From the NCBI GenBank assembly GCA_029977385.1, contig JAPOKZ010000002.1, forward strand, positions 15,492 to 79,491: a stretch of DNA of 64,000 nucleotides. The letters run 5' to 3'. The stretch comes from Methanobacteriota archaeon. Lineage in GTDB: Archaea > Thermoplasmatota > Poseidoniia > Poseidoniales > Thalassarchaeaceae. The notes under the pieces are model-generated. The model saw nothing but the letters and a program-made list of their open reading frames with translations, had not been told where the DNA came from and made no database searches. This document shows, in pieces, positions 23,031 through 36,947 of this stretch; the first letter of the stretch is position 1; each line of letters opens with the position of its first letter. Both the position numbers and the translations under genes were made by a program.

Positions 23031-25895
23031 TCATTTTGCACATGCTCTCTCGATATGCCTGGTAACAACTTCGACACTGGGTATCGTGTGGTCCTCAAGT
23101 GTGGGTGAGAAAGGAACTGGCGTATCCAATGCTCCAATTACTACTGGCGGAGTTTCCATCCTCCAGAACGACTCCTCGATAATTCTACTAGAAACTGTAT
23201 GCCCGAAACCACCAGTCCACTGAGATTCTTGAAGAACGATTAGTCTACCAGTCCTAAGTACGGATTTGATGCATGTTTCCGAGTCAAAGGGGACCAGAGT
23301 TCTAAGGTCAACTATTTCCACTTCAATCCCCATCTTCGATACCTTCTCTGCTGCATCCAGTGCAACGTGTACCATGGCGCCCCAGGTGACAATAGTGAGG
23401 TCCCTTCCTCCTCTGATTACGCCTGCTTTTCCAATCGAACTATCCCCATCTCTCAGTCTATTCGCCACGTCCTCTGTATTCACAATTTGATTGATTGACT
23501 TCCCCCATCCGGTTATCCCGCCCCTCAGACCATACAGGCCAATGTGCTCTAGATAGACCACAGGATCGGGTAGATGGTGCGACTCAATTAGCAAGTCATA
23601 AGCATCCTGTGGATTACTAGGGGTCACAATGATTAATCCTGGATCGTTAGTTAGCCATGATTCAATCATGTTAGCATGAAATGGTCCACTCCTAGTCTTC
23701 GCACCCAGAGGAATTCTCACTGTCAAGGGTACCTCTGCTCCCCATCTCCATCTTAATTGAGCCGCATTATTGACTAGAGGGTTCATTGCCAGAGCTGCAA
23801 ATCCTCCGAACTGGATTTCAGCTAGTGGCCTCATCCCTCCCAAAGCCGCTCCTGTAGCCGAGTGGATAATTATCGCTTCAGATAACGGCATATCAAGCAG
23901 TTTTGATTGATGCCCCCTAGCCTTGAGACCTAGATTCATTCCGAATGCACCGGCTACTTCCATGTCCTCCCCCATAAACAACATCTGATCGCCGAATTCA
24001 TCTGCTAGTGCTGCCATTGCATTCTGAATTGCCCTGCTGTAAGTCCAAGAATTGGGGGCATCGGAGAACTCAATTGATAGCTCCCCGGGCTTAATAATAG
24101 GCTCAAAACTAGCCCTTGATCCATCAATCCTCAGAAGTTGATTCTCATGACTAGTCGCGTCTGAGATGGAGGTAATCCCCTTGACAACCGAATTTCCCTC
24201 CGGCCACTGCATTTTTTCTAGTTCGCTCCTAGCCATCTCCACCCCCTGCTCTTCTTTCTCCTGTATTCGATTGAGCCTTTGTTCCCCAACTCCGAGTTTT
24301 ATCAGCAATTCCCTATGATTGGGAAGAGGATCTTTCTCTGACCAATATCTCAGTAATTCCCGATCAACATAGCCCGGAGGGTTTCCGCTTGCTGCTCCGA
24401 GGTATAGGTCATCATGATGGTGAGCGTGCCCACAACCCCTCATTGTTTCAACGTGAATCAACGTAGCTCCGCATCCGTCTTTAGCGAACTCTTTAGCAAC
24501 TGCAGTAGATGAATAGAATAGGGCTGGATCGGATCCATCGATAGTCCATGCAGGAATTCCCATTGCATGCCCCTTGTCGCCAAATGTCTCAGCACCTGAT
24601 TGAGCAGAATTGAGAGTATCTAGTGCAATCTGATTATTCTGAATCATGAAGCATATTGGCAAACCACGAACTCCAGCGAAATTCATGGCCTCCCAGAACT
24701 CACCGCTACTACTACAACCCTCTCCTACGGGGGCTAAGTGGAATCTACTAATCCCTAGTCGACTCGCAGCTAGGGCTACACCGGTAGTAGTTGCACTTGC
24801 AATTGGCAATGGCGCAGTAGGCGGAAGGACCCCCTTCTCCCAGTTCCCGATATGCAGGTCTCTGCCACCGCTTCCTTGAATGCCTCCGTCCATGTATGAT
24901 TCTGCCTTGCCCATTTGGGCAGAGAACACCTCGATCGGGGTCTGCCCCATTGCAAGTGCTAGGCCCATATCTCTGATCATTGGAGCTACAATGTCTGCAT
25001 TATGACGTGTTTCTTCGGTTAAGTCAACTGCTCTTGTCATGGCCGTAGCGCAAGCGACCACTCCTTCCTGCCAGGTGGATCTGAAACCTTTTCCACCAAA
25101 AATACCTCCATCCGGAGTGGGTAGCCCATTAGCAAAGAGATCCTTCAATTCCTCATCCACCAATCTCGTCCGAATCATTCTTCTTTGCCATTCTATTCTA
25201 TTTTCGACAGTAATAGAAGAATAGTGAGCAATTCTTCTCATGCATAGCGTCAGATCGATTAGCAATCTGTCCAATCTTCTCTTCAGGAAGACCTCACCCT
25301 GTCTCATCGGTATTATTTCTGATTTCGTAAGGTCCGATAGAGTGGGATGCAACATCCTTTCTAAGTATCTTTGTTCGATTTTCTCGATTAATCGTATGGA
25401 GAATTCGTGAAACTCTTCACCAGTCATTTTTTCTTTACATTTTATTGAATCCCAACATTCTGAAACAGAATTTAGATGCCCATCCTGCCTCTCTGCTACA
25501 AACTCTAGTAAACTCTCCTTGGCTCTTTTTGAATCTAGTTTTGAGGGAAAAGTCAATGGATTTTCAGGAATCCACCCTGCACCCCATATTTTTGGCATAG
25601 TTGTTCGAAACTTTTCATTTCCAGACTCGTCAACAGATATTGTGGAATCTCTGATAGTGCCTTGATTCCTTCTTTCAATCTCTTCTTCAAGTGCCACCAC
25701 GTCCTTTGAGTCCCTTTCCCAAATTTCGACATTCCTGAGTCTACCCTTTCCCGAGGAAGATCTATGCAGGGTAGTCCGTACTCTTTTGCCGCACCCCACA
25801 CATCTTCTGTCTAATTTATTTGACTTATCCGATCTAGTCTTCCAGCTTTGGTGGAGGTGGCATTCGGGACACTTCCAGATGCCTACTCTCGCCAT
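23031..25895 (-). CDS. fused E1 alpha-beta component of a TPP-dependent 2-oxoacid (or acetoin) dehydrogenase with an N-terminal zinc-ribbon extension
   Basis: The alpha part has a TPP motif (GEGCSSSGEFWEAMNFAGVRGLPICFMIQNNQIA). The beta part has MGEDMEVAGAFGMNLGL and LLDMPLSEAIIIHSATGAALGG. The N-terminal zinc ribbon is CPEC-x19-CVGC. The ORF is open to a GTG at 25910, and the first ATG is at 25895. Confidence 0.85.
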   Translation of the reverse strand: MARVGIWKCPECHLHQSWKTRSDKSNKLDRRCVGCGKRVRTTLHRSSSGKGRLRNVEIWERDSKDVVALEEEIERRNQGTIRDSTISVDESGNEKFRTTMPKIWGAGWIPENPLTFPSKLDSKRAKESLLEFVAERQDGHLNSVSECWDSIKCKEKMTGEEFHEFSIRLIEKIEQRYLERMLHPTLSDLTKSEIIPMRQGEVFLKRRLDRLLIDLTLCMRRIAHYSSITVENRIEWQRRMIRTRLVDEELKDLFANGLPTPDGGIFGGKGFRSTWQEGVVACATAMTRAVDLTEETRHNADIVAPMIRDMGLALAMGQTPIEVFSAQMGKAESYMDGGIQGSGGRDLHIGNWEKGVLPPTAPLPIASATTTGVALAASRLGISRFHLAPVGEGCSSSGEFWEAMNFAGVRGLPICFMIQNNQIALDTLNSAQSGAETFGDKGHAMGIPAWTIDGSDPALFYSSTAVAKEFAKDGCGATLIHVETMRGCGHAHHHDDLYLGAASGNPPGYVDRELLRYWSEKDPLPNHRELLIKLGVGEQRLNRIQEKEEQGVEMARSELEKMQWPEGNSVVKGITSISDATSHENQLLRIDGSRASFEPIIKPGELSIEFSDAPNSWTYSRAIQNAMAALADEFGDQMLFMGEDMEVAGAFGMNLGLKARGHQSKLLDMPLSEAIIIHSATGAALGGMRPLAEIQFGGFAALAMNPLVNNAAQLRWRWGAEVPLTVRIPLGAKTRSGPFHANMIESWLTNDPGLIIVTPSNPQDAYDLLIESHHLPDPVVYLEHIGLYGLRGGITGWGKSINQIVNTEDVANRLRDGDSSIGKAGVIRGGRDLTIVTWGAMVHVALDAAEKVSKMGIEVEIVDLRTLVPFDSETCIKSVLRTGRLIVLQESQWTGGFGHTVSSRIIEESFWRMETPPVVIGALDTPVPFSPTLEDHTIPSVEVVTRHIERACAK

Positions 25896-25910
25896 ATTGT
25901 TCCGAATCAC

Positions 25911-30122: not shown

Positions 30123-30854
30123 CTAATCTTTTTCATTGAAAATTGTAGAAATCTGCTCACCGGTAATCATGGGGATGCCATACTTGCTCGCATAAGCCCT
30201 AGCTCCTTCCAATGATAAAGCGCCGTCTCCCTCTGGTTCAAGCATCTCCGCGCCGATCGTACAAGCGGTCAAACCCGCCAATCTTGCTATTGAAACGGCA
30301 AGCTCCGTATGGCCCTGACGCGTCTTTAGACCGCCGGGGGACTCTCTGCATACAGGGATATGTCCTGGGGTTCTGAACTCCTTCCCAAGCCTTTCCTTCG
30401 CCTTAGCCCCATCTTCTCCATTTTCGATCAGTTCTCCAGATAATTCTCCGAATCTCCTCGTTGTTAGTGATCTGTCTCTATCCGTAATTCCAGTGTATGT
30501 CTCTCTGTGGTTCAGTGAAAGAGTGAAGGCGGATCTTGAGTCATACTGGAGATCATTAGTTACTAGATGTCCCAAGACGGGGTTCTCTGCTACCAAAGAC
30601 TCGTGCGAGTGAATATCCTGCAACCAAGGAAGTCCAAACATTTCCCCAATCTCGTTACCTATGGCAAGGAATAGAAGGCCCCCACAGTCGTTTCTGAGTC
30701 TTCTAATCACTTCTGGCGTTGCTGCTGCTGCATGCCAAAGAAGGTCGGTTTCCATCTCTCGATAGTCCGAATCGTAAATCATCACAGGCCTTCCAGATTT
30801 GAAGGCAGATATCGCCTCGCCCACCCCATTGTCCATGCCACGCGGAGAGGTCAT
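30123..30854 (-). CDS. ribB: 3,4-dihydroxy-2-butanone-4-phosphate synthase
   Basis: Motifs include AISAFKSGRPVMIYDSDYREMETDL and PGHIPV. The ORF is open to 30986, but conserved sequence starts after the ATG at 30854 (alternative ATG at 30836). Confidence 0.85.
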   Translation of the reverse strand: MTSPRGMDNGVGEAISAFKSGRPVMIYDSDYREMETDLLWHAAAATPEVIRRLRNDCGGLLFLAIGNEIGEMFGLPWLQDIHSHESLVAENPVLGHLVTNDLQYDSRSAFTLSLNHRETYTGITDRDRSLTTRRFGELSGELIENGEDGAKAKERLGKEFRTPGHIPVCRESPGGLKTRQGHTELAVSIARLAGLTACTIGAEMLEPEGDGALSLEGARAYASKYGIPMITGEQISTIFNEKD

Positions 30855-30886
30855 TGATACCCGATATTTTCGGTCTAGAAAAAGTG

Positions 30887-31780
30887 ATGTCTTCGAGCCT
30901 CTGGGGTTATCCCGTGAGTGACCCCCTGGAATCCTCGGCTCCATTGCGGGTGGATTTAGCAGGAGGGTGGACTGACGTACACCCATACCCTACAGATTTC
31001 GGAGGGGAGGTGGTAAACTTCGCAATAAAGCATAGAGTAACGATCAGGAAACTTGAGGAGGGGGAAAATTCAGACCTAGAATTCAACTTTCCAGTACCTC
31101 GCGGTTCTGGTCTGGGCACCAGTTCGGCGATGAATGTTGCATTGGCAGCCCTCAATTCGCCCAGTCAATTAGAGAAACCTGAGGAAATAGCCGAGCAAGC
31201 ATTTGTTTCTGAATCACAACAAAATCGCTGTGGAAGGCAAGATCATTGGGCTTCCGCTATCGGCGGATTTAATCATCTTCTTTTTATTGGAGACTCGGTT
31301 GAAAGGATGCCATTCGAGCCAATGAAATCATCTCTAAACTGGCTGAAGAAGCACATGGTAATTTCTTATTCAGGAATTAGCAGAAATTCGGGGGAAATCC
31401 AGGAATCAGTATGGTCTAGGTATTCAAATGGGGATGAGAGAGTTGTCCAAGGTTTGCACAAAATTAGGAGCTCTGCTAGAGAAATGGCAAATGGTTTGCA
31501 ACAGGATAGGAGAGATCTGGTAGTTTCCTCATTGAGGGGGGTCTGCGAGGGCGTCGATATGATAGATCCAACAATACACGATCCGTTTCGAGGTGTTGTC
31601 ATGCATTTGATTGAGTCTGGATCGATTGTGGCATGGAAGGCGCTAGGTGCTGGCGGAGGGGGTTGTTCCGCATTACTTTGCTCACCTAATGGCAAGGAAT
31701 ATGCGACTCAGTACATCGAGAACCAGGGTTGGAAAATCATGGATTGGGACTACGATGAGCAAGGAGTTCAGGTTATTTGA
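30887..31780 (+). CDS. GHMP-family sugar kinase (COG2605-like; HddA/fucokinase-like), substrate unknown
   Basis: Motifs are APLRVDLAGGWTDV, GHMP motif II PRGSGLGTSSAMNVA, and motif III GAGGGGCSALLC. The ORF is open from a TTG at 30854, and the first ATG is at 30887. Confidence 0.7.
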   Translation: MSSSLWGYPVSDPLESSAPLRVDLAGGWTDVHPYPTDFGGEVVNFAIKHRVTIRKLEEGENSDLEFNFPVPRGSGLGTSSAMNVALAALNSPSQLEKPEEIAEQAFVSESQQNRCGRQDHWASAIGGFNHLLFIGDSVERMPFEPMKSSLNWLKKHMVISYSGISRNSGEIQESVWSRYSNGDERVVQGLHKIRSSAREMANGLQQDRRDLVVSSLRGVCEGVDMIDPTIHDPFRGVVMHLIESGSIVAWKALGAGGGGCSALLCSPNGKEYATQYIENQGWKIMDWDYDEQGVQVI

Positions 31781-31829: not shown

Positions 31830-34800
31830 ATGGCCGGACGCCGTTCGATGTTTTTCCCTCTGGCTCTTTTGGTCCTAATCGCCCCTATGGCGTCTTCCTC
31901 TATCTGGGTTGAAGAGATCCCTAAAGGTGGTTTTGATGCCGAAGGAAAGTGGTCCCCATCGGTGGAGTCAGACATCCATTGGGAATGGTGGACACATTGG
32001 AGTAGGGACAAGGATTCTAACTCCATTGACGATAGACTGGAATGGCTAATTGAGCAACCTGAGGAAGTCAAGAGAGATTGGTGGAGGCGTGCTCCGGATG
32101 GACACGCTAGGATATTCGTAGACTACGATCACCACCCAACGGACGCCGATATTTCCGCCTTGGAGTCACTAGGAGTGGAAGTTACTTTCAGGTTCGGATA
32201 CCTCAATACGGTTTCAGCTACTTCACCAGTGTCTTCAATATTGGACGATGATGGAATCAGATCACTCAGTGGGGTTGTGATGATCGAGGACCTCGGACTG
32301 GCCGAGACAAACATGAACGAAGCCGTACCCAACATGGGGGTCGATTCGGTATGGAATGACTTAGGTTTAGACGGAACAGGCTCTGTAATCGCAATTCTCG
32401 ATACTGGTGTTCGTGGTGATCACGAGGGATTGAACGACATGGACGATGACCCGTTTACCTGTATCGATGATCCTCCTGAGCCCGATCCTCTGGATCCTGA
32501 GCCACAGCCAATTCCTGCAGACTGCGATCCAAAGATTATTGCTTTCTTTGATGCAGTTTTCACTGATGATGAACAAGATCCATCCACGTCATATGATTCG
32601 GGCACCCACGGCACTCATGTCGCAGGAATTGCCGCTGGTTCTGGTGGGGGGCAGACAGACCCCGGAACTGGTTCGAGGTATGTCGGTGCTGCGCCAGGGG
32701 CCTATCTGATCAATATCCTCGGGTGTTGTGATGGCGATATTGAGGATGTAATGCAAGGAGCGCAATGGGCTATTGACAATAAAGACAAGTTCGGGATCGA
32801 TATCGTCACCTCCTCCTTGGGGGAACAGCAGTTCGAGGTTCATATCGACAATGACGGGAGTTCAGCTTGGAGCCGCCAGATGGATATGGTCGTCGAGGCG
32901 GGAATCATAACCACGCTCTCGGCGGGTAACGAATTCGGTGGGGCGACACTTGCTGGTTGTAACACGATCGACAGCCCAGGAGACGCTCAGTTACCAGTTA
33001 CAGTGGCCAGTCTTGACAAGGATCTAGGCCTAGCGATTTACAGCAGTCGCGGGTACACCTCGGACTTCAGAGTCAAGCCTGATGTCGCTACTATCGGCTC
33101 CAATATCATGGCTCCCGACGCAGCGACTCAGGATGGTTATACAAGCAAGTCGGGAACTAGCATGGCCACGCCACTTATGGCCGGTATCGCAGCACTGATG
33201 GTTCAAGCAAACCCCGATTTGACACCAACAGAGTTCAAGGATATCATTTCCGCTCACTCAATTGAGAGGGATATCCAACTCTTGAACGATCCAGGATTCA
33301 ACGACTGCAGCGTCCTAGAAACCCGTCCCGATAATGAGTTCGGTTATGGCCAGGCCGACCCAACCGCCTTCGTCGAGGCGGCTGGAAGCATAGATAGGTC
33401 ACTGAACGTGTCAATGGAAGTCTCCACTCTGCAAGAAATAGGGAACGAGAGCTATGTCACAGGCACCTCCAGTGGAGCAGCCCCGGGTACTGGGCTAGTT
33501 GAGATCAAGGTAGGGGGAGGGGCTTGGTCGGGAGCAGCAGACCTTTCCAAGGACGGGGACTGGTCGTCTTGGAGCATAAAATTAGACCCTCATGAAAAAT
33601 CAGGAAACTCGACAATTTATGCTAGGTTGGTAGTTTCAGATGACAGTATCTCTCCAGTGGATGCCAGGAGGGTGATATTGGTAGATGCTCAATTTTCTGG
33701 CTCATCATCATCCTCAGGATTGACAAACCTAGGACCAATTGCCTTCTTTGTTCCCTTCCTCCTTGCAATAGTACTGGTTTTGTTTGTCGGTAGGAGGGAA
33801 GAGTGGCTACAAAGCCTAACCTCTACTCCGAGTGACGAAACTCAAGAAATTTCGACTTCGCCCGCGGAGCCAGAGGAAACCTTGTCTTGGTCCGAGAGAA
33901 TGTCGAAAAACATAACCGAGCTAGGCAAGGGAGGGGCGATAACTGAGAATCCGATCAAGAGAGTGCTAACTCTTTGCCTCCTATACTTCGCTCAAGGTCT
34001 CCCTTCAGGTTTCGCAAGTGTGACCTTTGCTGCATATCTAGTAGCAAACGGTGTTTCAGTGCCTGAGATAGCGATTCTTTTCGCTACTGTATCCCTCCCA
34101 TGGACCTTCAAGTGGATTTGGGGGCCTGTAGTTGATTCAGTTTACATTGAGAAATATGGCCCTCGAAGGCAATGGATCGTGTTCGCCCAAACCGGAATGG
34201 CACTTACTCTGGGCTCCTTGCTCCTAGTTCCGGACTTGAATGGGCAAATCGACCTGGTTGCGAGAATCTTATTCGTTCACAACATATTCTCATCTCTTCA
34301 GGACGTAGCCACAGATGCTCTCGCCGTTGAGGTCCTAGAACCTGATGAGGTAGCTAGGGTGAATGGCCTCATGTTCGCCGCAAAGAGGGTGGGGATTATC
34401 TTCGGAGGGGCAGTACTGGGGGTATTAATCACCAAGATAGGGATCTCTGGAGTCATAGCCGCGCAATTAGTGATGCTTGTATTCATCATCATGGTGCCAC
34501 TTTTCATGGTCGAGAAGCCCGGAGTCCAACTGTTCCCGTGGTCTAGAACTACGGATGTCACCGAATCACTCGATTCAAGGTCTGAATCCGGAGCATTGGT
34601 GGCTGAGGTGGTGGAGGAATCAGAAGAGGCTCCGTGGGAACAAGAGGAAGTGTTCCGAGTAGCAAGAACGGTCGGGTACAGTATTGCCGACAACCGAGTA
34701 TCACTCGCCTCCTTCTTCGCAGTTTCCGGAGTCTGCATTTGGCTGTTCGGCTTTGTGCTTGATGTCTTCACCGTGGACTGGGGCTTCGGTAAGAATGTCC

Positions 34801-35741
34801 GAATAGGATTCCCGGCACTAGATGCCAAACAAATCCTCGGATTCGACCTCAGGCCATGGTCTGGAACAAATAGGATCAGCCTCGCACTCATCGTCCTATC
34901 GGTAATTTCGATGGGTAGCTCCAGACTCATTTCACCACAATCAAAAGAATCTATGCCAAACCCACTCGCGCTGATTTTAGCTCCACTCGGTGCAACATCG
35001 AGACATTTAGATCCAGAGTCTATTCGAAAAACGGTCGCGAGAACATCATTCTACCTGACCAAGGCCTTCTCAGTCCGGTCAGCGTTTCTGCTGGTAATTG
35101 CTGGGCTTTTGGGTGAGCTTTACTACTTCACTTCGCCCATATATGTTGATATCTTCATCAATGAGGCAGGATGGTCTCAGAGTAAGTACAACGGGATAGT
35201 AGGTGGGATTGCCTTGCTAGGATCGGTTTCGGGACAGATAATCGGAGGGGTCCTCGGGGATAAGTTCGGGATTCGTAGAGTAGCTATGGTCTCCTTCTTG
35301 GTTCTAGCCCTGGCAAACGCCACTTTCGCTTTCTTGGAGCCCATGTGGGGGAATACCTTGGTCATGACGGTGTACCTAATAGGCCAGTACTTCGTAGCTG
35401 GAATCGCTCTCATTTGTATTATTTCGCTTTGTATGAGGCTGACATGGAGTAAGGTCGGAGGGACACAGTTCACTGCATACATGTCTATTCTGAACACCTC
35501 CGTAGTTTTCGCATACACTTTGACAGAGAAGATGATATCTATCTTCAACTACACTTCTGCGATCTATATCGGTGCCGCCCTGACTCTCGTCACCACCTTC
35601 TTCCTACTCTTCATCGATGAGAATGAGACCGATCGCGTCCTCGAGGGCAGAGGTGGTGGTGACGACGAATTCGATGACCTAGGGGAATCTCTCTGGTGGG
35701 ACTCCGAAGAAGGAGGCGAGAAGCCTGTCGCAAGTGCATGA
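31830..35741 (+). CDS. fusion protein: secreted subtilase (S8) - Ig-like spacer - TM helix - AmpG/PAT-family MFS permease
   Basis: This is an uninterrupted 1303-codon ORF with a signal peptide. The subtilase triad is D191 (AILDTG, nt 32400), H260 (SGTHGTHVAG) and S444 (SGTSMATPLMAG), with oxyanion SAGNE. A TM helix spans aa 634-654. The MFS core from about aa 708 has LLYFAQGLPSGF and LPWTFKWIWGPVVDS..GPRRQW motifs like AmpG. Confidence 0.8.
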   Translation: MAGRRSMFFPLALLVLIAPMASSSIWVEEIPKGGFDAEGKWSPSVESDIHWEWWTHWSRDKDSNSIDDRLEWLIEQPEEVKRDWWRRAPDGHARIFVDYDHHPTDADISALESLGVEVTFRFGYLNTVSATSPVSSILDDDGIRSLSGVVMIEDLGLAETNMNEAVPNMGVDSVWNDLGLDGTGSVIAILDTGVRGDHEGLNDMDDDPFTCIDDPPEPDPLDPEPQPIPADCDPKIIAFFDAVFTDDEQDPSTSYDSGTHGTHVAGIAAGSGGGQTDPGTGSRYVGAAPGAYLINILGCCDGDIEDVMQGAQWAIDNKDKFGIDIVTSSLGEQQFEVHIDNDGSSAWSRQMDMVVEAGIITTLSAGNEFGGATLAGCNTIDSPGDAQLPVTVASLDKDLGLAIYSSRGYTSDFRVKPDVATIGSNIMAPDAATQDGYTSKSGTSMATPLMAGIAALMVQANPDLTPTEFKDIISAHSIERDIQLLNDPGFNDCSVLETRPDNEFGYGQADPTAFVEAAGSIDRSLNVSMEVSTLQEIGNESYVTGTSSGAAPGTGLVEIKVGGGAWSGAADLSKDGDWSSWSIKLDPHEKSGNSTIYARLVVSDDSISPVDARRVILVDAQFSGSSSSSGLTNLGPIAFFVPFLLAIVLVLFVGRREEWLQSLTSTPSDETQEISTSPAEPEETLSWSERMSKNITELGKGGAITENPIKRVLTLCLLYFAQGLPSGFASVTFAAYLVANGVSVPEIAILFATVSLPWTFKWIWGPVVDSVYIEKYGPRRQWIVFAQTGMALTLGSLLLVPDLNGQIDLVARILFVHNIFSSLQDVATDALAVEVLEPDEVARVNGLMFAAKRVGIIFGGAVLGVLITKIGISGVIAAQLVMLVFIIMVPLFMVEKPGVQLFPWSRTTDVTESLDSRSESGALVAEVVEESEEAPWEQEEVFRVARTVGYSIADNRVSLASFFAVSGVCIWLFGFVLDVFTVDWGFGKNVRIGFPALDAKQILGFDLRPWSGTNRISLALIVLSVISMGSSRLISPQSKESMPNPLALILAPLGATSRHLDPESIRKTVARTSFYLTKAFSVRSAFLLVIAGLLGELYYFTSPIYVDIFINEAGWSQSKYNGIVGGIALLGSVSGQIIGGVLGDKFGIRRVAMVSFLVLALANATFAFLEPMWGNTLVMTVYLIGQYFVAGIALICIISLCMRLTWSKVGGTQFTAYMSILNTSVVFAYTLTEKMISIFNYTSAIYIGAALTLVTTFFLLFIDENETDRVLEGRGGGDDEFDDLGESLWWDSEEGGEKPVASA

Positions 35742-35991
35742 ATTCCTACAGGAGGCCGACGAAGACTTCGTGGTCTTCACACAGACAATATGCCCATACT
35801 GCACACGGGCTTTCAGAACCCTGGATTCCAAGGGTCTGACATACATAGAGGTGAATCTGGATAACTTCGAAGGACTTCGAAGGGAAGTAGTAATGGAGAC
35901 CGGTCATCGAACAGTCCCCGTAATTTTCGATATGCGGGGTGGACACCCCGTATTCGTCGGAGGTTCAGACAACCTTCTGGAATACCTCTAG
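35734..35991 (+). CDS. glutaredoxin-like protein
   Basis: The 85-aa ORF has a CPYC active site, TVPVIF and a GGSD motif. It overlaps the upstream gene by 8 nt. Confidence 0.8.
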   Translation: MHEFLQEADEDFVVFTQTICPYCTRAFRTLDSKGLTYIEVNLDNFEGLRREVVMETGHRTVPVIFDMRGGHPVFVGGSDNLLEYL

Positions 35992-36947
35992 AGTGACCAA
36001 GACTGGGTTATTCCACCTGCAATTCTGACTCTCAAGAATGTTGATCCACCTGTGAAGGTCGCAGTCAGGGTGTATTCTCCAGAAGGATATGGGATCGTAC
36101 CTAGGGTGCCCATCTCACTTGCTCCGGGCCCCCAAATCCTCTCAAGTACCGAAATTGACATATGGTCCCTCAAGGTAAAGGAGATGGATGATCCAGAGCC
36201 ACATTCTGCGTCGATGAAGTAGATCATCTCATCCCAGTCTCCATCGCTGGGGTGGTCACTAACGAGGAAAGTATCTCTGAACTCAATGTCATTCCCCGGG
36301 TCTTCCCAAGTTTCGCTGAATAGATCCCCTCCTCTGACAAAGTAGACGTCTCCGGTATGTCCAGAACCCGAGTCAGACAACATCATCCTAAGGTTAGAGT
36401 CTCCTGCAGGATTCTTCCACGTGAATGACTGGAAGAAGCCAATTTCGCTGTCGAAAACGTAATCCAGCCTCGAACCATCATCGGAGTTCGCAATTACTAC
36501 TGCTGTGCTTCCTGAAACATCCGAAACGAAGGCACTCCATTCTGTTGAGAAAAGGGTGAATGTCCATGGCTCTCCTTGCTTTAGGGGAAAGCTCAGTACT
36601 TGCTGTGGGGCGCCGTTTTCGAACGCACCAAGATCAGAATGCGTAATCCTCCCAAGGAATGGATTGTGGTTCAGTACGGCATGCCTCCTAGCCTCGGTAA
36701 GACTGGATATAGCTAGCATATACGCAGTCCCGTCCTCTTCACTCGTACTTGCTACTACCAGTCTCGCAGTGTCGTCACTGTAGTCTGGGGTTGAGAATGT
36801 GTACAGCCACCAGTCTCCCGTCTCCCATGTGGGCAGCTCAATCTCATTCGATCCACTTCCACTTACTCCTGAGGATCCTCCTGTACAACCGACAAGGGAG
36901 AAAGAAAGAATGACTACGACCATTGCCAACGCGCGATACCCGCTCAT
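35988..36947 (-). CDS. secreted lipoprotein-like protein, unknown function
   Basis: The signal peptide ends in a lipobox-like SLVGCTGG, and the body is beta-rich. I recognised no family. Confidence 0.5.
   Translation of the reverse strand: MSGYRALAMVVVILSFSLVGCTGGSSGVSGSGSNEIELPTWETGDWWLYTFSTPDYSDDTARLVVASTSEEDGTAYMLAISSLTEARRHAVLNHNPFLGRITHSDLGAFENGAPQQVLSFPLKQGEPWTFTLFSTEWSAFVSDVSGSTAVVIANSDDGSRLDYVFDSEIGFFQSFTWKNPAGDSNLRMMLSDSGSGHTGDVYFVRGGDLFSETWEDPGNDIEFRDTFLVSDHPSDGDWDEMIYFIDAECGSGSSISFTLRDHMSISVLERIWGPGASEMGTLGTIPYPSGEYTLTATFTGGSTFLRVRIAGGITQSWSL

Follow-up and report, generated by a model that had tools for sequence, protein, structure and literature searches.

A secreted subtilase joined to a PAT/AmpG-like permease in Poseidoniia: a modular protein family and a tentative digest-and-import reading

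Introduction

Few uncultured plankton are as abundant as the archaea of Marine Group II (MGII), whose way of life is believed to be protein degradation. How extracellular hydrolysis pays free-living cells when its products diffuse off is an open problem. The stretch of DNA analyzed here, 64,000 nucleotides of a Thalassarchaeaceae genome (order Poseidoniales; assembly GCA_029977385.1, contig JAPOKZ010000002.1, positions 15,492 to 79,491; hereafter the window), holds at 31830..35741 (+) a gene that a preliminary description, made from the letters of the sequence, had read as a secreted S8 subtilase fused in one frame to an AmpG-type permease that belongs to the major facilitator superfamily (MFS). 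The locus raises the question of whether this union is real, how widely it occurs, and what a protease attached to a transporter would be good for.

Results and Discussion

Gene and protein layout

The gene is a single open reading frame (ORF) with an ATG start and 1303 codons plus stop, exactly as first described. Profile matches, hydropathy and AlphaFold2 (AF2) models, the latter rated by the predicted local distance difference test (pLDDT), together show the predicted product to be a single polytopic membrane protein with about 15 transmembrane (TM) helices, arranged as follows.

31830..35741, +, whole coding sequence, S8 subtilase - TM0 - PAT/AmpG-like MFS fusion (profile matches; full-length orthologues at 60-93% identity)
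31830..31901, +, Sec-type signal peptide, aa 1-24, cleavage site approximate (hydropathy peak at aa 7-25)
31902..32369, +, Trp-rich N-terminal region and presumed propeptide, aa 25-180 (53-92% identity across orthologues, dN/dS ~0.05)
32370..33359, +, S8 subtilase catalytic domain, aa 181-510 (full Pfam model)
32400-32402, +, catalytic D191
32607-32609, +, catalytic H260
32928-32930, +, oxyanion N367
33159-33161, +, catalytic S444
33360..33728, +, beta-sandwich spacer and Ser-rich stalk, aa 511-633 (AF2 strands, pLDDT 70-80)
33729..33797, +, TM0, predicted single out-to-in membrane helix ending in RR, aa 634-656 (hydropathy, AF2, charge distribution, motif conservation)
33798..33950, +, predicted cytoplasmic acidic Ser/Thr-rich linker, aa 657-707 (low pLDDT; in frame in all orthologues)
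33951..34505, +, MFS N-bundle TM1-6, aa 708-892, with extended motif A and the TM4 pair D825/D829
34506..35012, +, central insert, aa 893-1061, acidic loop and two extra hydrophobic helices
35013..35606, +, MFS C-bundle TM7-12, aa 1062-1259
35607..35738, +, predicted acidic cytoplasmic C-terminal tail, aa 1260-1303 (low pLDDT)

The signal peptide of the preliminary description agrees with the hydropathy profile. Its pro-region fared less clearly: aa 24-185 gave no Pfam match even at E<=10, the I9 propeptide included, and its role as a propeptide is presumptive. A conserved Tat signal was considered and dropped, since the twin-Arg is present in just 65 of 120 orthologues and is thus not a conserved Tat motif. 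TM0, proposed earlier at aa 634-654, is the strongest hydropathy peak (aa 635-653) and an AF2 helix at aa 636-656. The cytoplasmic loops contain 13 Lys/Arg residues versus 5 in the outside loops, with many more at the cytoplasmic helix ends. Positive charges thus cluster on the predicted cytoplasmic side, and the topology first proposed is coherent: the protease faces outward, TM0 leads the chain into the cell, and the MFS part starts from a cytoplasmic N-terminus. The linker (aa 657-707) has diverged among orthologues, its frame being kept through insertions and deletions. No paralogue of the fusion gene was found within the window.

The protease half

The Pfam model Peptidase_S8 (PF00082) matches aa 182-507 over its full length (model 1-288/288, E=2e-43, 149 bits against a 21.8-bit cut-off). 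The motifs stand where they had been read, with DTGV at 191, HGTHVAG at 260, SAGNE at 364-368 (N367) and GTSMATP at 442-448 (S444). None of D191, H260, N367 and S444 varies among 35 diverse orthologues, and the triad follows the Asp-His-Ser order; judged by these residues, the domain is catalytically intact and apparently active. Among solved structures, Tk-SP (3afg, 2.7e-38) comes nearest to it in sequence. Between D191 and H260 (aa 191-260, window 32400-32609) an acidic, Pro-rich insert of ~37 aa is found, DMDDDPFTCIDDPPEPDPLDPEPQPIPADCDPK, in which many positions, including two Cys, are invariant in the 35 orthologues.

The beta-rich spacer expected after the catalytic domain was recovered by AF2 as a beta-sandwich at aa ~526-617 (pLDDT 70-80), for which CBM_6 gave a weak, sub-threshold match (E=0.003). 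The AF2 model of aa 150-1303 was of limited use for the S8 part (pLDDT <50; predicted template modelling score, pTM, 0.50), and its inter-domain geometry is unusable. This failure is probably due to the 35 alignment rows being >85% identical in that region.

The permease half

Pfam MFS_1 (PF07690) matches from aa 715 onwards (E=3e-27, 95.8 bits against a 33.4-bit cut-off). Further matches were obtained to BT1 at aa 722-895 and to Acatn (PF13000) at aa 714-794, the latter at 48.7 against a 23.7-bit cut-off and aligned just to model positions 4-85 of 546. The top NCBIfam transporter model is the AmpG family TIGR00901, which covers aa 710-1260 along nearly its whole length (model 4-415/417, E=5e-35) at a score below its curated cut-off; the scores of the AmpG equivalog models NF008867 and NF008238 are likewise far under theirs. 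The motifs of AmpG and acetyl-CoA transporters on which the preliminary description had based its assignment are in place (LLYFAQGLPSGF at aa 717-728, TFKWIWGPVVDS at aa 759-770, GPRRQW at aa 777-782). They include the MFS motif A between TM2 and TM3 (G-x-x-x-D-x-x-G-x-R-R, here WGPVVDS...GPRRQW), of which D769, R779 and R780 are invariant in the 35 orthologues.

The solved structures most similar in sequence are AmpG (4e-11) and SLC33A1/AT-1 (1e-10). AF2 predicts 12 core helices for the MFS part (pLDDT 70-88), and a Foldseek search with this model placed AmpG first (E=2.5e-13), followed by SLC33A1 and then by other MFS proteins. All 50 of the matches listed, from a total of 294 in the PDB at E<=1e-3, are MFS transporters. 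The full MFS core claimed at the outset is thus supported by profiles, predicted fold and motifs alike, and on these grounds the permease is classed as a PAT/AmpG-like MFS protein and not as an AmpG orthologue.

A cryo-EM study of E. coli AmpG identified residues important for that transporter (PMC11568325), and these were mapped onto the permease via a HMMER alignment. K62, W65, P67, D70, R80-81, W83, D125 and D129 of AmpG correspond to K761, W764, P766, D769, R779-780, W782, D825 and D829, which vary little or not at all. AmpG's buried K/D/D cluster, which serves proton coupling there, is hence retained, and the permease is probably proton-coupled.

The central insert had been noticed before as a long acidic stretch that may contain extra helices. 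Hydropathy and AF2 place two hydrophobic helices in it (aa 959-981 and 1009-1033), while its extent has to be corrected from aa 893-1010 to about aa 893-1061. It varies between lineages and is missing from a second group of permeases described below (P0124, P0128, P0131, P0132). Past TM12, the AF2 model shows only a short helix (aa ~1264-1272) and then an acidic tail of low confidence, and the C-terminal TM13/14 of AmpG were not found in it. To our knowledge, archaea lack murein, so that in a Poseidoniales host the canonical AmpG substrate, GlcNAc-anhMurNAc(-peptide), is not expected. Nothing informative emerged from the genes around plain MFS relatives, although Pro_racemase, DAO and amidohydrolase genes were found close to a bacterial one (n=1).

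Conservation of the fusion

Both domains are carried by >120 full-length clusters at 90% identity, collected from JGI, ENA, NCBI, Tara and Logan, with lengths of 1223-1317 aa and identities of 60-92%. Some of these bear the JGI pipeline label 'subtilisin family serine protease/MFS family permease'. In addition, 79 loci were retrieved from GTDB contigs (one genome per species) of Poseidoniales including Thalassarchaeaceae (MGIIb). Among them are three single-cell genomes, AG-343-E09, AG-422-I18 and AG-422-I22 (two at 93% identity, one at 81%), and one locus lies on a 1.6 Mb single-contig metagenome-assembled genome (MAG). S8 and MFS share one frame in all loci that are not ended by a contig edge, barring six S8-less loci and one broken copy, and the S8/MFS junction is unbroken in every one of the ~70 complete S8 loci that were fetched. 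The broken copy (L069) has a frameshift inside the S8 domain, off the junction, and represents a sequencing error or a pseudogene. Another locus (L045, NZWI01000049.1) was deposited as a Neomarinimicrobiota bacterium MAG and contains the archaeal fusion gene together with Poseidoniales-like riboflavin genes; because of these flanks, it is probably mis-binned.

Among the checks proposed in the preliminary description were profile searches and a survey of related genomes for fused versus split genes. The former matched Peptidase_S8, MFS_1, Acatn and TIGR00901, and the latter returned no complete S8 locus split at the junction. An artefact, be it misassembly, read-through from one gene into the next or a pseudogene, was rejected and is given practically no weight, as five data sources (>120 clusters) show the same continuous frame, which recurs in genomes of single cells and on the 1.6 Mb contig. 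Besides, JGI independently names both domains in one protein, and the linker is under purifying selection with its frame kept through insertions and deletions. The earlier judgement in favour of a real fusion therefore stands, as a single ORF is conserved over the order in independent assemblies.

Pairwise Nei-Gojobori dN/dS values were calculated against close relatives with unsaturated dS. They are 0.016-0.019 for the S8 domain, 0.015-0.020 for the MFS N-bundle, 0.020-0.037 for the MFS C-bundle, 0.16-0.19 for the linker and 0.15-0.20 for the central insert. Both halves are under strong purifying selection, and the MFS bundles resemble the S8 domain in this respect, which argues that the permease is no decaying anchor.

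A representative search with aa 150-1303 as query (50% clustering over 1.84 billion proteins) returned the S8-MFS architecture in just two 50% representatives, the MGII cluster and a protein of 1176 aa with 48% identity (P0122), whose members are placed in Marine Group III (MGIII) by NCBI and UniRef. As far as sequence searches can tell, the architecture spans the class Poseidoniia, and none was seen outside it in the searches made.

In several lineages, the S8 domain (32370-33359) is better conserved than the flanking housekeeping genes. In comparison with locus L016, for instance, its identity is 92%, with 71% for ribB and 74% for the H+-PPase, which is unusual for a presumed nutritional exoprotease.

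A family of permeases with interchangeable ectodomains

The window protein follows a family pattern of signal peptide, ectodomain, TM0, acidic linker and PAT-like MFS. All ectodomain-MFS relatives have the TM0 motif FF.PF...RR[DE], or more broadly FF.P[WF]F...R[RDE], in common, and all family members share the permease start R..(T/S)LC.LY.AQG.P.GF. Apart from the window protein, the pattern was found in the S8 fusion of MGIII (P0122), in proteins with a domain termed U (P0123/L074-79, P0124 and P0131), in an M28 aminopeptidase fusion (P0128), in a cupredoxin fusion with intact type-1 copper ligands (P0132) and in a protein with a different domain termed V (P0130). A few C-terminal fusions were also returned when the representative search was made exhaustive. 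At six MGIIb-type loci (L074-L079), the gene at the syntenic position, with riboflavin genes and a GHMP-type kinase upstream, encodes 884-892 aa without S8: a Cys-containing, all-beta domain U of ~210 aa takes the place of pro-region, S8 domain and spacer, and is followed by the same TM0-linker-permease.

The TM0-MFS part of P0128 was used as query for a second permease group, with domain U counted by its own hidden Markov model. Among the 120 Poseidoniales clusters listed, ~9 carry M28, ~36 cupredoxin, 35 domain U and ~35 domain V, and 5 are partial. The cupredoxins of P0132 and of P0364-P0405 (L089, L090) are plastocyanin-like, with the ligands C-x-P-H-x-x-M, and are joined via TM0 to the same kind of permease. 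The idea that domain U is a diverged form of the spacer beta-sandwich was rejected (hhalign probability 0.14%); BLAST similarity between the two is confined to the last strand and TM0. In the AF2 model of P0123, domain U is all-beta with pLDDT 50-74 at best, which is too weak for a fold search.

A stand-alone version of the protease half also exists. P0121 (672 aa, 9 contigs) is a complete pro-S8-spacer-TM-anchor protein that ends just past its own TM helix, and its S8 domain is 80% identical to that of the window; by this resemblance it is taken as the natural unfused counterpart of the S8-MFS fusion. Its genomic context differs: it lies on low-GC (40%) contigs with SnoaL_2 and GtrA downstream (L091-L094, e.g. 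1649-3667 in L091).

The orthologous locus itself does not always hold the S8 fusion. In L080-L082 (gene 6001-8610 in L080), L074-L079 and L083, it is occupied by M28- or domain U-TM0-MFS and not by S8-TM0-MFS. The M28 fusion P0128 lies at this locus, with a ~320 aa gene without family, the H+-PPase and a GATase downstream; compared with the window, its PPase is 87-91% identical and its permease 37-52%. P0124 is syntenic too, and P0131 and the MGIII S8 fusion are found at other loci. The locus is a hotspot of cassette replacement.

The exchange of modules becomes apparent when their identities are measured against the flanking genes ribB and PPase as a yardstick. Close relatives (L009-12, L033, L035, L039, L060) reach 76-85% for ribB, 90-95% for PPase and 90-95% for S8, and just 49-64% for the MFS part. 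For distant relatives (L017, L020, L029 and others), the values are 59-71% for ribB, 78-79% for S8 and 72-76% for MFS. A sliding window located the switch in identity at about aa 540-700 (nucleotides ~33450-33930), i.e. in the spacer, TM0 and linker. Single pairs illustrate the mosaic:

L009 versus L072: S8 80%, MFS 94%
L009 versus L039: S8 98%, MFS 71%
L074 (domain U) versus L017 (S8): S8 not applicable, MFS 84%

The trees of the S8 and permease halves are discordant, which points to intragenic recombination. Read in this way, the modules have apparently been traded repeatedly between Poseidoniales lineages, the fused architecture being restored every time, and the TM0-permease chassis is shared by one modular, recombining family with interchangeable ectodomains.

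Proposed function

In the predicted layout, a Sec signal exports the N-terminal half with pro-region, subtilase and beta-sandwich; TM0 brings the chain back to the cytoplasm, and the acidic linker leads into a 12-helix permease with a 2-helix hairpin inserted between its bundles. As the best reading of this S8-TM0-MFS protein, we tentatively propose a 'digest-and-import' unit. The tethered subtilase may cut dissolved or particulate protein at the cell surface, and the linked, proton-driven permease, at 1:1 stoichiometry and nanometre distance, would import a class of the products such as short or modified peptides. The diffusive loss of hydrolysate would thereby be curbed for a free-living planktonic cell. 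The unfused P0121 bears on this proposal: it is held by its TM helix alone, so that anchoring does not explain the permease, and the fusion is more simply accounted for by some coupling of function. Likewise in its favor is the second, independent peptidase fusion (M28 aminopeptidase, TM0 and MFS) at the orthologous locus of another Poseidoniales lineage. All MGII MAGs were reported to have extracellular S8 and M28 peptidases and were viewed as those of protein degraders (PMC6864105), and a precedent is given by the mammalian MFS transporters PepT1/2, the extracellular domains of which bind trypsin (PMC4597091).

Several results weigh against the digest-and-import proposal. The AF2 model offers no support for an active site docked over the permease mouth, the housekeeping neighbourhood (riboflavin genes, a sugar-type (GHMP) kinase, H+-PPase) gives no functional hint, and no permease gene was found within about 5 kb of P0121. 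As for the transporter, the TIGR00901 score is 120.9 bits and thus below the curated cut-off of 350 bits, and the Pfam search gave no PTR2 match at E<=1, so the protein is not a POT/PTR peptide transporter; POT structures appeared in the fold search as generic MFS matches only (ranks 20, 35, 37 and 48). Of the AmpG substrate residues, the functionally tested sugar-pocket Y152 (K852 here), K132 (A832) and, in the C-bundle, K235 (L1093) and E336 (Q/R1186) are not kept, and D238 (E1096) is the sole conservative change among the substituted positions. The same chassis bears non-protease ectodomains, namely cupredoxin in ~36 of the 120 clusters, domain U in 35 and domain V in ~35. Permease type does not co-vary with the ectodomain, as the 84% identity between the permeases of L074 (domain U) and L017 (S8) indicates, and S8 modules are paired with permease cores just 54-60% identical to that of the window. 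The cupredoxin variants and the near-identical permeases with non-protease ectodomains argue against tight product channelling. A wider form of the proposal, which we hold more loosely still, is a Poseidoniia cassette system of 'ecto-enzyme permeases', in which a reaction at the surface, be it cleavage, trimming, redox release or capture, would feed its product directly into uptake by the permease joined to it, with S8, M28, cupredoxin and the novel beta domains U and V as modules. Planktonic archaea would then have a single-polypeptide 'selfish' mechanism, by which free-living cells could profit from extracellular hydrolysis in dilute seawater.

The same mixture of ectodomains, redox cupredoxin included, could also be expected if the job of the permease were unrelated to proteolysis and the ectodomains were independent surface modules, recombined onto it for convenience, with benefits such as expression, stable membrane display or localization in a wall-less or S-layer archaeon. 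The presence of S8 or domain U on nearly identical permeases, the discordant phylogenies of the halves, the swapping of whole cassettes at one locus and the P0121 S8 module that does without a permease all fit such an arrangement. Nevertheless, we regard it as unlikely, if still a serious competitor: TM0 already anchors the protein, and an 'anchor' of 12-14 TM helices would be a needless cost; the fusion has been kept over the full depth of Poseidoniia, with 0 of ~70 complete S8 loci split at the junction; two unrelated peptidase families were recruited independently; and TM0 and the linker start form a conserved unit with the permease.

Less probable is a role in envelope turnover analogous to AmpG recycling, in which the subtilase would trim (glyco)proteins of the cell's own surface and the permease would re-import the released (glyco)peptides. 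AmpG is the nearest solved relative by both sequence and predicted fold, its N-bundle binding and proton cluster K62/D125/D129 is conserved, the gene is near-universal at a housekeeping locus, and the conservation of S8 above housekeeping genes would be more in keeping with an endogenous substrate that is fixed than with a generalist enzyme used for feeding. Several lineages, however, do without the protease at this locus, where M28 or domain U stands in place of S8; moreover, the sugar-contacting residues Y152 and K132 of AmpG are not conserved, and no envelope substrate is known in these uncultured archaea. We consider it very improbable that, in the opposite direction, the MFS part exports a small precursor (peptide or metabolite) which the tethered subtilase matures outside. 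The logic would be like that of lantibiotic LanT/LanP or of peptidase-containing ABC exporters, the PAT family member SLC33A1 moves its substrate out of the cytosol, and the Foldseek matches include the exporters EfpA and QacA. Yet no precursor or biosynthetic genes were found in the neighbourhood, the M28, cupredoxin, U and V variants are unlike a leader-peptidase logic, and we know of no established MFS exporters of protease-sized peptide substrates.

Comparison with known systems

AmpG (PAT family, TC 2.A.1.25; PDB 9c3f, 8zgz, 9j9z) is the best match of aa 708-1260 by sequence and predicted fold, and shares the extended motif A (W-x-P-x-x-D ... R-R-x-W) and the cytoplasmic N-terminus. Its extra helix pair, however, is the C-terminal TM13/14, which forms a hydrophobic vestibule (PMC11568325), whereas the predicted pair of the window protein lies between TM6 and TM7. 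AmpG also lacks the TM0 and 630 aa ectodomain present here, where the host is an archaeon without murein. On the protease side, the membrane- or wall-anchored subtilases of archaea and bacteria, with Tk-SP (3afg), the halolysins, NisP and the C5a peptidase, are similar in being secreted, with an N-terminal extension, an S8 domain followed by a beta-sandwich or jelly-roll, and a C-terminal surface anchor. In the window protein, the anchor helix instead runs on into a complete transporter, and P0121 is the ordinary version.

Partnerships of ectodomains with secondary transporters are familiar from eukaryotes. ACE2 or aminopeptidase N partners the amino-acid transporter B0AT1, and rBAT/4F2hc partner SLC7 proteins in heteromeric transporters. 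Like PepT1/2 with trypsin, these place an extracellular hydrolase or hydrolase-like ectodomain on a single TM helix beside a secondary transporter (ectodomain, 1 TM and a 12 TM carrier), and the proposed purpose is likewise a higher local product concentration. They differ in being separate proteins, held non-covalently or by disulfides, whereas the present case is one archaeal polypeptide with another MFS subfamily and a putative coupling. In peptidase-containing ATP-binding cassette transporters (PCATs), a C39 peptidase is joined to an ABC exporter, and this peptidase is cytoplasmic and acts on the cargo during ATP-driven export. PCATs share the covalent fusion of a protease domain to a membrane transporter, but they differ in protease clan, transporter superfamily, membrane side and probable direction. 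The 'selfish' utilisomes of Bacteroidota combine surface hydrolases with SusCD/RagAB in multi-protein outer-membrane complexes of diderm bacteria. They resemble the proposed unit in coupling a surface depolymerase to an importer and in keeping products from competitors, with no homology between the two.

The preliminary description knew of no characterized protein that joins an extracellular protease to a permease, and none was found in the open-access literature searched. Nor did the open-access full text searched describe the fusion of S8 to MFS or, for MGII/MGIII, any PAT-like permeases that bear ectodomains; a match to the Encyclopedia of Domains proved unrelated. Database labels are purely automatic ('MFS transporter', 'hypothetical protein' or the JGI double name), and the MGII survey counts extracellular S8 genes without describing a fusion (PMC6864105). 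The component families are well known, which does not hold for the covalent joining of a secondary transporter to an extracellular protease, nor for the modular, recombining family around it. Irrespective of function, an MFS permease family with swappable ectodomains is defined and intragenic module exchange across an archaeal order is demonstrated, and in genome surveys of MGII the 'extracellular S8/M28 peptidase' and 'AmpG/MFS transporter' counts are shown to overlap, some proteins being included in both. If the digest-and-import reading holds, a protease tethered to its transporter would be a minimal, single-gene answer to product loss.

Neighbouring genes

The convergent neighbour of the fusion gene at 35988-36947 (-) encodes a beta-rich, 319 aa protein that has both a signal peptide and the lipobox-like 'LVGC', and for which no Pfam or NCBIfam family was matched. 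It is kept beside the fusion gene in S8, M28 and domain-U loci (45-94% identity). Upstream, an ORF for a GHMP-type sugar kinase (30854-31780 (+), 308 aa, TTG start) overlaps the divergent ribB gene (30123-30986 (-)) by ~130 nucleotides; because relatives measure 283-285 aa, its start is probably farther downstream. Among NCBIfam models, it most resembles heptose-7-phosphate kinase and fucokinase, at scores far under the cut-off. Elsewhere in the window, an ORF of 959 aa at 23031-25910 (-), which begins with a region of ~300 aa without match, is an apparent fusion of 2-oxoacid dehydrogenase E1 alpha (~300-578) and E1 beta (623-958).

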